A stretch of 64,000 nucleotides of DNA from Candidatus Thorarchaeota archaeon (GTDB taxonomy: Archaea > Asgardarchaeota > Thorarchaeia > Thorarchaeales > Thorarchaeaceae), in the NCBI GenBank assembly GCA_046758445.1, contig JBHIAE010000001.1, positions 32,001-96,000 on the forward strand. The letters are read 5' to 3'. Within the stretch, counting starts at the first letter, position 1. Each line of letters begins with the position of its first letter. This document shows, piece by piece, positions 9,790-50,703 of this stretch. Under the pieces are notes generated by a model that was not told the origin of the DNA, did not search any database, and was given only the letters and a program-made list of their open reading frames with translations. Both the position numbers and the translations under genes were made by a program.

Positions 9790-10377
9790 CTAGGGTCGGT
9801 GCCAGACAAAGCTATAGTATGCAATCTGACCGTTCTCTTTGATTGTCGCTACTATGAACTTCTTCCGTACACTGGTTGCCAGCCTTCCAGCCCTCACAAT
9901 ATCGAGTGGGACCACACCTTTCCTTTGGGGAATCACGTGCACAAGAAATGGAGCATGATCCTTACCAGGACCATGTTCGTAGACTGCGAAATCGGTACCG
10001 AACTTCAGCCCAGGTCTTACAACGTATCCTCGCTCTCTTAACTGACTATACACCAAGAACCTATCTCTGAAGTCCTCTGACCTGCTTTCACCGAGTGTCA
10101 GAAGGTCATCCTGCGTGAGTGTACGTTTCTCTTGCCCACTGTGTACCTTGAGTCTTCCTGCCTCGCTCAGATAAACGCACTCAATCAGCGAGAGTTCTAA
10201 TGGCTTATCGAAGATAGCAGACTTCGGCTTCCGAATTCCAATTGGCTGACCAAAGTAACCCTCCCCGTATAGACGCATACCATGTTCTGGATTCCAGACT
10301 ATGCCTCGGTCACCAACCAGCTCTGCCTTAGCTATGTCGTCACGGGGACTTGACAATGCCTCCACCGGCCGTTTCAT
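9790..10377 (-). CDS. endA: tRNA-splicing endonuclease, catalytic subunit
   Basis: GLKFGTDFAVY, GPGKDHAP and SVRK give the Tyr-His-Lys triad; N-domain contains GYFGQPIGIRKPK loop. Confidence 0.95.
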   Translation of the reverse strand: MKRPVEALSSPRDDIAKAELVGDRGIVWNPEHGMRLYGEGYFGQPIGIRKPKSAIFDKPLELSLIECVYLSEAGRLKVHSGQEKRTLTQDDLLTLGESRSEDFRDRFLVYSQLRERGYVVRPGLKFGTDFAVYEHGPGKDHAPFLVHVIPQRKGVVPLDIVRAGRLATSVRKKFIVATIKENGQIAYYSFVWHRP

Positions 10378-11036
10378 GTATTGAGGGTCAGAGATAGGCC
10401 TCTGATTGTGTTAGCAGCATCCTCACTGAAGTTCGCGATCTCTTCTATCATGTTGATGAAGTCACGGAAACGTAGAAGCACCGGCAGATCCAATTCCAAA
10501 GAGTAGAGAATCGAAACAATATCTCTTTGGAGGATGTCAATCTCTTTCTCGAGTCTGCAAATCTCGTCGGCCTTCTTAATCGACTCCTCGATGTTTATGT
10601 GGAGAAACCTCACAGCCTCCCTCTGATGTGTTATCTGGTCGATGAATAGCTCGATGAATTTGGCGATCTTGCTCTTCAGGCCTCCATCGGGATTCCAAGA
10701 TTCAGCTACCGCTGCGAGATGATAACAGGCAATCTCTGCACCATCGATTAGTTTGTCATTATAGTTGACTAGACGCAATAGGTCTTCGCGCTGCATGAGT
10801 GTGTTTGCCTTGGAGAGTTCATTCAGAATAGCAAGTTTGAGGTCGTCAGCCTTCTCTTCGAGCTCAGTAATCTTCTTCAGCTGCTCTGGATTCACCGGCT
10901 TGCCTTCTTCAAGCCAGTCAATGATTGACCCCTTCACAATCTTGTTTGCCGAAAGTGCGAATCTGAAGTGTTCCTCAAGCATCTGAGTGATATGCGCCAG
11001 TTCAGAACTCATGTATCTATTGTTATCGAGGACCAT
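10374..11036 (-). CDS. DUF47/PhoU-like phosphate transport regulator
   Basis: LEEKADDLK, REDLLRL and LEKEID repeats; start may be 11012. Confidence 0.85.
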   Translation of the reverse strand: MVLDNNRYMSSELAHITQMLEEHFRFALSANKIVKGSIIDWLEEGKPVNPEQLKKITELEEKADDLKLAILNELSKANTLMQREDLLRLVNYNDKLIDGAEIACYHLAAVAESWNPDGGLKSKIAKFIELFIDQITHQREAVRFLHINIEESIKKADEICRLEKEIDILQRDIVSILYSLELDLPVLLRFRDFINMIEEIANFSEDAANTIRGLSLTLNT

Positions 11037-50114: not shown

Positions 50115-50315
50115 TACTGCCCCCTACATTGCAATAGCCATCTTCTCAGATAAGAGTTGAGAACTGAGAAAGGAATCCAAACGATAACCATCTCATCTGC
50201 GCCACGACTCAAGAGCCTTACAGCTGTGAATGACCTGGGTTCTGAAGCCAATATTCTTGTCGTACTATTGTTTCAGGGAAAAAGTGAAAAGCACGACAAT
50301 ACAGTGACTGTCCAA

Positions 50316-50485
50316 GCCCGGATAGCCAAGCGGTTCGCTCATGACATTCCGTCACGAACCTGCAGACGGCGGCAGCCTGGAGCAGGCCAACTGGTCGAAC
50401 AGGCAGCTGCTCTCCTTCTAGGAGGCATGAAGGTCGATCATTCGTGGTCGGTCTGGCTAGAGTTCGAATCTCATTCCGGGCGCCA
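50316..50485 (+). tRNA. tRNA-Ser(GGA) with three introns (50336-50365, 50383-50404, 50430-50460)
   Basis: Spliced 87-mer: acceptor GCCCGGA/UCCGGGC, D arm GCC-AAGCGGUUAC-GGC, anticodon stem GCAGC/GCUGC with loop CUGGAGA, variable arm CUCCU/AGGAG, T arm AUGAG-UUCGAAU-CUCAU, G73, encoded CCA. Confidence 0.93.
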
Positions 50486-50487
50486 CT

Positions 50488-50703
50488 TCATTCCTTTCTG
50501 CCAATCCTCAAACCGATGAATATCAGGGCAAGAGTAAGTGCTGTCAGTCCAGTCGCCAGCACAGGAGGTAGTGCCCTCTCTGGATAGAGTGGGCCTTCGA
50601 CTGCTGCGGTATTAATAGTCCAAAGGAGAAAGCCTGCAATGAGGAACAAGATGATTGAGTCAATCACTTGACCCATGCTGACCTTCCTGTTTCTCTGGCT
50701 CAT
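50488..50703 (-). CDS. Small two-TM membrane protein
   Basis: Two hydrophobic helices; upstream GGTGA SD. Confidence 0.7.
   Translation of the reverse strand: MSQRNRKVSMGQVIDSIILFLIAGFLLWTINTAAVEGPLYPERALPPVLATGLTALTLALIFIGLRIGRKE

Follow-up and report, generated by a model that had tools for sequence, protein, structure and literature searches.

A tRNA-splicing endonuclease of probable (alpha-beta)2 type with a CSL-bearing catalytic subunit in a Thorarchaeota archaeon

Among the solved tRNA-splicing endonucleases (EndA), the closest relative of the catalytic protein described here is the alpha subunit of Aeropyrum pernix (3P1Z chain B). It is a single-unit protein of about 186-195 aa with the catalytic triad, and it works together with a separate non-catalytic subunit (PMC3241643). 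The Crenarchaea-specific loop (CSL) of such enzymes, also named L1, was defined by Hirata et al. 2011 with its conserved basic residues K44 and R46 (PMC3241643; review PMC6379350). Cleavage is almost lost in the A. pernix K44A mutant, and grafting of the CSL into the EndA of A. fulgidus leads to broad specificity (PMC3241643). The (alpha-beta)2 EndA of M. kandleri (5X89) has a full-length beta subunit, as do the Thorarchaeota, but its alpha subunit has no L1/CSL and its specificity is constrained (PMC5829648), whereas the Thorarchaeota alpha carries the loop. Eukaryotic TSEN shares the fold of the catalytic domain and the logic of a heterotetramer built from catalytic and structural subunits. 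It comprises four kinds of subunits, Sen2 and Sen34 being catalytic and Sen15 and Sen54 structural, in comparison to two kinds in the Thorarchaeota, and the eukaryotic subunits are without a CSL (PMC6379350).

For the Asgard archaea, Kaneta et al. 2018 reported an (alpha-beta)2 EndA with an L1 (CSL) insert from four genomes, including that of Thorarchaeota SMTZ1-83 (PMC5829648). According to a preprint from 2026, two full-length paralogues are encoded by 44 of 60 Asgard genomes, the catalytic and recognition residues are broadly conserved, and the Asgard EndA enzymes are so far neither assayed nor structurally solved (10.64898/2026.10.13.758758). The CSL loop and the two-subunit build are therefore already published for Asgard archaea, and the assignment given here is a correct but ordinary annotation. 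The architecture of these enzymes bears on the origin of the four-subunit eukaryotic TSEN and on the tolerance of heavily interrupted tRNA genes.

The window, a stretch of 64,000 nucleotides from one contig of a Candidatus Thorarchaeota archaeon, contains the catalytic subunit gene. Its features, in window coordinates, are the following.

9790..10377, minus strand: endA alpha, catalytic subunit of the tRNA-splicing endonuclease, 195 aa (from the ORF and domain profiles)
9862..9981, minus strand: catalytic triad region of alpha, with Y133 at 9979-9981, H141 at 9955-9957 and K172 at 9862-9864
10201..10242, minus strand: CSL/L1 loop IGIRKPKSAIFDKP, residues 46-59 (from the translation and the A. 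pernix alignment)
10228..10230, minus strand: codon of K50, the equivalent of the RNA-recognition lysine K44 of A. pernix (from the A. pernix alignment)
10374..11036, minus strand: upstream PhoU_div/DUF47 gene, whose stop overlaps the start of endA alpha by 4 nt (ATGA)

The protein is a single-unit EndA in which both EndA domains are complete. The N-terminal domain is matched by PF02778 (1.1e-15, 57.3 bits, cut-off 21) and the catalytic domain by PF01974 (5.5e-31, 106.9 bits, cut-off 27), and the NCBI equivalog model for endA, TIGR00324, is passed with 102.8 bits, its cut-off being 59.6. When 35 single-unit alpha-type sequences are aligned, Y133, H141 and K172 do not vary. H141 aligns with the position which is His in A. 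pernix 3p1z_B and Ala in the mutant 3ajv_B. The original prediction, a single-unit EndA with an intact Y/H/K triad, is thus borne out by the 195-aa ORF. The closest proteins come from metagenome-assembled genomes of Candidatus Thorarchaeota, including SMTZ1-83 (P0003, 88% identity). The ATGA overlap suggests that the PhoU_div/DUF47 gene and endA alpha are probably co-transcribed. The PhoU_div/DUF47 gene has no known connection to splicing.

The best solved relative, A. pernix alpha (3p1z_B), is matched with E 3.2e-45 and 46% identity. It is followed by 3ajv_B, a version of this subunit with the catalytic His mutated, and by the alpha subunits of P. aerophilum (2zyz_B) and S. tokodaii (2cv8_A). 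An AlphaFold2 model of alpha (mean pLDDT 90.1) predicts the EndA fold. The alpha subunits of S. tokodaii, A. pernix and P. aerophilum hold the top ranks in a Foldseek search with that model, with TM values of 0.84-0.91 and an rmsd of 1.8-2.3 A over ~180 columns; for the A. pernix subunit the rmsd is 1.8 A. In the model, residues 46-59 have no secondary structure and form a confidently predicted loop (pLDDT about 95). Sen34 and Sen2 are matched by alpha at E 1e-11 to 1e-12 and are also found by Foldseek. The E-values against the PDB indicate no specific affinity of alpha, or of the beta paralogue described below, to one particular Sen subunit.

The segment GYFGQPIGIRKPKSAIFDKPLELS, in which a CSL-like insert had been proposed, corresponds to residues 40-63 of alpha. 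Across the loop, GYFGQPIGIRKPKSAIFDKPLELSLIE of the Thorarchaeota alpha aligns without a gap to 27 residues of the A. pernix subunit, so that the CSL has the same length in both proteins, and K50 and K52, two residues further on, stand opposite K44 and R46. The loop is also gapless against the alpha subunits of S. tokodaii and P. aerophilum. The match to A. pernix is residue for residue, and the proposal holds when the loop is compared with the Aeropyrum and Sulfolobus subunits. By its alignment the loop is the CSL (L1), with an inserted core of about residues 48-56. Among the 35 single-unit alpha-type sequences K50 is conserved in at least 90%. The 150 cluster representatives which were scanned fall into one group with a full-length G-x-x-KPK loop and another with a gap of about ten residues at the CSL site, the latter being mostly two-unit proteins of 340-380 aa of the euryarchaeal type.

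The EndA of SMTZ1-83 is of the same type and carries the same loop. Its alpha (P0003) and beta (P0122) are 88% and 80% identical to the proteins described here; it differs in species only, and no functional difference is visible. In comparison to A. pernix, a hyperthermophilic crenarchaeon, the host is an Asgard archaeon of sediment-type metagenomes.

The original prediction had seen no structural beta subunit in the window and had left the choice between an alpha4 and an (alpha-beta)2 enzyme undecided, naming a genome search for a second EndA paralogue as the way forward. We searched the whole assembly (3.25 Mb, 92.7% complete) with the PF01974 profile. The genome contains exactly two real EndA homologues, the gene in the window and one on contig C7, so that the two genes are unlinked and the beta candidate indeed lies outside the window.

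L002:1057-1809, identical to G000:C7:9156-9908, plus strand: beta paralogue, ORF of 250 aa with both EndA domains

A third match (L003, E 0.024) is a chorismate mutase/aminotransferase encoded beside a prephenate dehydrogenase and was discarded as a false positive. The beta protein scores about 77.8-80.3 bits with PF01974, which is well above the cut-off. Aligned with M. jannaschii EndA, it keeps the Tyr and Lys of the triad and has Ala at the His position. Among the eight Thorarchaeota beta sequences that were aligned, this position is variable and occupied by A, V, E, N or S. The CSL is missing as well: an alignment of five alpha and eight beta sequences has a gap of nine residues in beta where alpha reads IRKPKSAIF. 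An acidic L10-type loop, VDQNGEV, is invariant in the eight Thorarchaeota beta sequences, while alpha has KENGQ there. The elements of the EndA fold appear to be kept in the beta sequence. The orthologues from Thorarchaeota have 207-244 aa, are 60-90% identical and share many invariant columns. Together with the presence of beta in nearly every sampled Asgard genome, this conservation argues for a gene under selection and not for one in decay.

Translation of beta probably begins about 30 codons downstream of the annotated GTG, and the true length would then be about 210-230 aa. Residues 1-65 of the ORF have a pLDDT below 50. An acidic N-terminal tail of about 45-60 aa (e.g. DDELEHLTPEDLEEEVLEEVLEPEEEPA), which is predicted to be disordered, is conserved in all Thorarchaeota orthologues, and shorter acid-rich N-termini are found in the beta proteins of other Asgard families. 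The AlphaFold model of beta is of low confidence (pLDDT 58.6) and its C-terminal domain is too poor for a fold search, so beta was identified by its sequence. Downstream, a gene for a PilT/T2SSE-type ATPase of 425 aa (L002:1806-3083, on the same contig) shares 4 nt with the beta gene. ARAGORN places intron-bearing tRNA genes on both sides of this locus, at C7:7893-8000 and C7:11233-11367.

The best PDB match of beta is M. kandleri EndA (5X89, E 5e-25), and M. jannaschii EndA is matched at E 1e-17, whereas the crenarchaeal beta subunits are reached only at E 0.003 to 0.75. Since beta is much closer to alpha4-type EndA and to that of M. kandleri, its likeness to the crenarchaeal beta subunits is a functional one and not a close match in sequence. 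Unlike the beta subunit of A. pernix, the Thorarchaeota protein is a full-length two-domain protein which keeps Tyr and Lys and carries the acidic N-terminal tail, and its resemblance to the enzymes of M. jannaschii and M. kandleri is far stronger than that to the A. pernix subunit.

The same pair of genes is found throughout the phylum. Two PF01974 matches are present in 137 of the 151 sampled genomes, one in 13 and three in a single genome; incomplete genomes make up most of those with one match. The alpha proteins from all 20 other Asgard families examined have the full-length loop, the lysine equivalent to K50 and the Y/H/K triad. In the beta proteins from nine genomes of eight other families, the His is absent (A, S or E in its place) and the Tyr is kept, and the CSL loop is absent from all nine. 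Judged from these sequences, the pair is a property of the whole phylum, as a loop-bearing alpha occurs in 20 of 20 families and a beta without His and loop in eight.

A candidate substrate of this enzyme lies in the same window, where a tRNA gene with three introns had been proposed at 50316.

50316..50485, plus strand: tRNA-Ser(GGA) with three introns (from in-silico splicing and ARAGORN)
50336..50365, plus strand: intron 1, 30 nt, position 20a/21 in the D-loop, relaxed bulge-helix-bulge (BHB) motif of the HBh' type
50383..50404, plus strand: intron 2, 22 nt, canonical position 37/38, relaxed hBH-like motif
50430..50460, plus strand: intron 3, 31 nt, position 51/52 in the T-stem, relaxed BHB motif of the HBh' type

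With the unspliced sequence ARAGORN reports no tRNA in the window and Rfam none at 50200-50600. Removal of the three segments in silico yields an RNA of 87 nt, which ARAGORN identifies as tRNA-Ser(gga) and folds into a full class II cloverleaf. In the spliced form the acceptor stem comprises 7 bp, the variable arm is long, nucleotide 33 is U and the CCA end is encoded. The triple-intron gene is therefore a real tRNA-Ser(GGA).

In a canonical BHB motif, the central helix H precedes each bulge of 3 nt, and the cut follows the second nucleotide of the bulge. Read in that way, intron 1 has an H of 4 bp with one G-U, the bulges UUC and AGA, an inner helix h' with 7 of 9 pairs and no outer helix h in register. 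Intron 2 has an H of 3 bp plus a G.A mismatch and the bulges AGC and GCA; there is no h' in register, and its outer helix is the anticodon stem. In intron 3, an H of 3 bp plus an A.G mismatch with the bulges UGA and AGA is combined with a perfect h' of 10-11 bp closed by a UUCG loop, and the outer helix is weak. All three motifs are relaxed.

The boundaries of introns 1 and 3 are fixed by orthologues which do not have these inserts. Within the same family, the D-loop intron is missing from L005, L007, L008, L010 and L011 and the T-stem intron from L007, L008, L010, L011 and L013. The 37/38 intron is found in all relatives seen, and it is the only one in the tRNA-Ser(gga) genes that ARAGORN reports for L010 and L007. 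An alternative 37/38 intron with a strict-looking BHB motif (cuts after positions 66 and 90) would give a class II product that combines a Pro anticodon with C33 and has no nucleotide 26, and was rejected; this rejection leans partly on general tRNA rules. For the T-stem intron, the registers 50/51 and 52/53 have no central helix, and only 51/52 yields a motif.

A genome-wide ARAGORN run with intron search returned 36 tRNA candidates, 20 of them with introns, some of which are implausibly long. That run gave no tRNA for Asn, Asp, His, Thr, Trp or Tyr and one for Ser. The low number of candidates and the missing isoacceptor families suggest that the genome probably has many tRNA genes which escape detection owing to multiple or non-canonical introns.

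Taken together, we regard it as highly probable that the EndA of this archaeon is an (alpha-beta)2 enzyme with a CSL-bearing catalytic alpha subunit, which would be of broad specificity and would cleave the introns described above. The active site Y133/H141/K172 would be supplied by alpha. The CSL/L1 loop would adjoin the active site, and the positive charge of K50, and of K52, would hold the phosphate beside the bulge. Such a grip may permit the cutting of relaxed BHB motifs at non-canonical positions. The paralogue on contig C7 is most likely the structural beta subunit, which would pair with alpha by C-terminal beta-strands, and its acidic L10-type loop VDQNGEV would bridge the two heterodimers. 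Every BHB intron in the cell, the three of tRNA-Ser(GGA) among them, is expected to be cut by this enzyme, and the exons would be rejoined by RtcB with archease. Both of the latter proteins are encoded in the genome, so that the pathway of cutting and rejoining is complete.

Because the genome encodes a paralogue without His and loop, the architecture is most likely (alpha-beta)2 rather than alpha4, which gives a direction to the question that the window had left undecided. A homotetramer built by the window protein alone would leave the C7 paralogue with another job or as a decaying duplicate. The window protein has both domains of a complete single-unit EndA, the S. tokodaii alpha was crystallised alone (2cv8), and the location of the two genes on different contigs would also suit such an enzyme. 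However, the M. jannaschii type of alpha4 enzyme does not fit a genome with two paralogues and a CSL, beta shows the 60-90% identity and near-universal occurrence of a selected gene and retains the EndA fold elements and the acidic L10-type loop, and the known loop-bearing single-unit alpha subunits all work with a beta (PMC5829648, PMC6379350). We therefore consider the homotetramer very unlikely. That both paralogues are catalytic and cut one splice site each, like eukaryotic Sen2 and Sen34, would agree with the retained Tyr and Lys, the full two-domain architecture and the PF01974 score of 77.8 bits. The general-acid His is, however, missing in every beta examined, the residue at its position varies among A, V, E, N and S, and beta has no CSL, which sits beside the active site; two catalytic subunits are extremely improbable here.

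A further reading accepts the loop as a homologue of the CSL but has the substrate range in this lineage set by other features or factors. It draws on the fact that the loop is found in every Asgard family sampled, whatever the intron load, and on the 2026 preprint, in which loop length and intron burden were not associated within families (10.64898/2026.10.13.758758). The mutagenesis in A. pernix and the chimera of A. fulgidus EndA with the CSL speak against it, as they show that loop and lysine confer broad specificity (PMC3241643), and the specificity lysine is conserved in the Thorarchaeota alpha. An invariant feature may moreover still be necessary for the broad range, though it is unable to explain differences between lineages. 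We hold it to be unlikely that other determinants replace the loop. As the loop is invariant across the Asgard families sampled, a correlation of its presence with intron counts, as had been suggested, is uninformative, and the loop cannot account for the intron differences between lineages.

Returning to the loop-bearing (alpha-beta)2 enzyme, the relaxed motif types seen in tRNA-Ser(GGA) need a loop-bearing endonuclease according to the cited papers. The original prediction went further and called the enzyme and this tRNA a matched pair. That alpha would serve the tRNA stands, but "matched" is overstated: the genome encodes no catalytic EndA other than alpha, which must serve every BHB intron, so the link between the two is generic. 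Among these introns are the HBh'-type ones at 20a/21 and 51/52, which have to be taken out of tRNA-Ser(GGA).

The locus adds a further well-documented case, with a loop-bearing alpha, a beta without the His, RtcB and archease, and it introduces no new concept. Its practical value is a defined enzyme pair together with a triple-intron substrate with set splice sites, which could serve for the first assay of an Asgard EndA. The mildly unusual points concern beta only, which is little diverged and carries the conserved acidic disordered N-terminal tail. As only the His and the loop were lost and Tyr and Lys were kept, one might speculate that beta reflects an early split into catalytic and structural subunits and stands nearer than any crenarchaeal beta to the ancestor from which the structural or the second catalytic TSEN subunits of eukaryotes arose, with the tail acting as a nucleic-acid mimic that gates the broad substrate range; we consider this unlikely.

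Besides the separate subunits, a fused form is seen among the cluster representatives. P0242, P0243, P0248, P0254, P0256 and P0313 are two-unit EndA proteins of 350-420 aa, in which a non-catalytic N-terminal unit is followed by a C-terminal unit with the full CSL (GIRKPK) and the triad. They resemble beta-alpha fusions, a form which was reported for Korarchaeota.

The presence of the introns in tRNA-Ser(GGA) also varies at short evolutionary distance. A comparison of L013 (G010:C344) and L015 (G007:C84) with L005, L007, L010 and L011 shows that within one genus and family the D-loop and the T-stem intron are present or absent independently of each other, a pattern indicating recent gain or loss of introns at these two sites.
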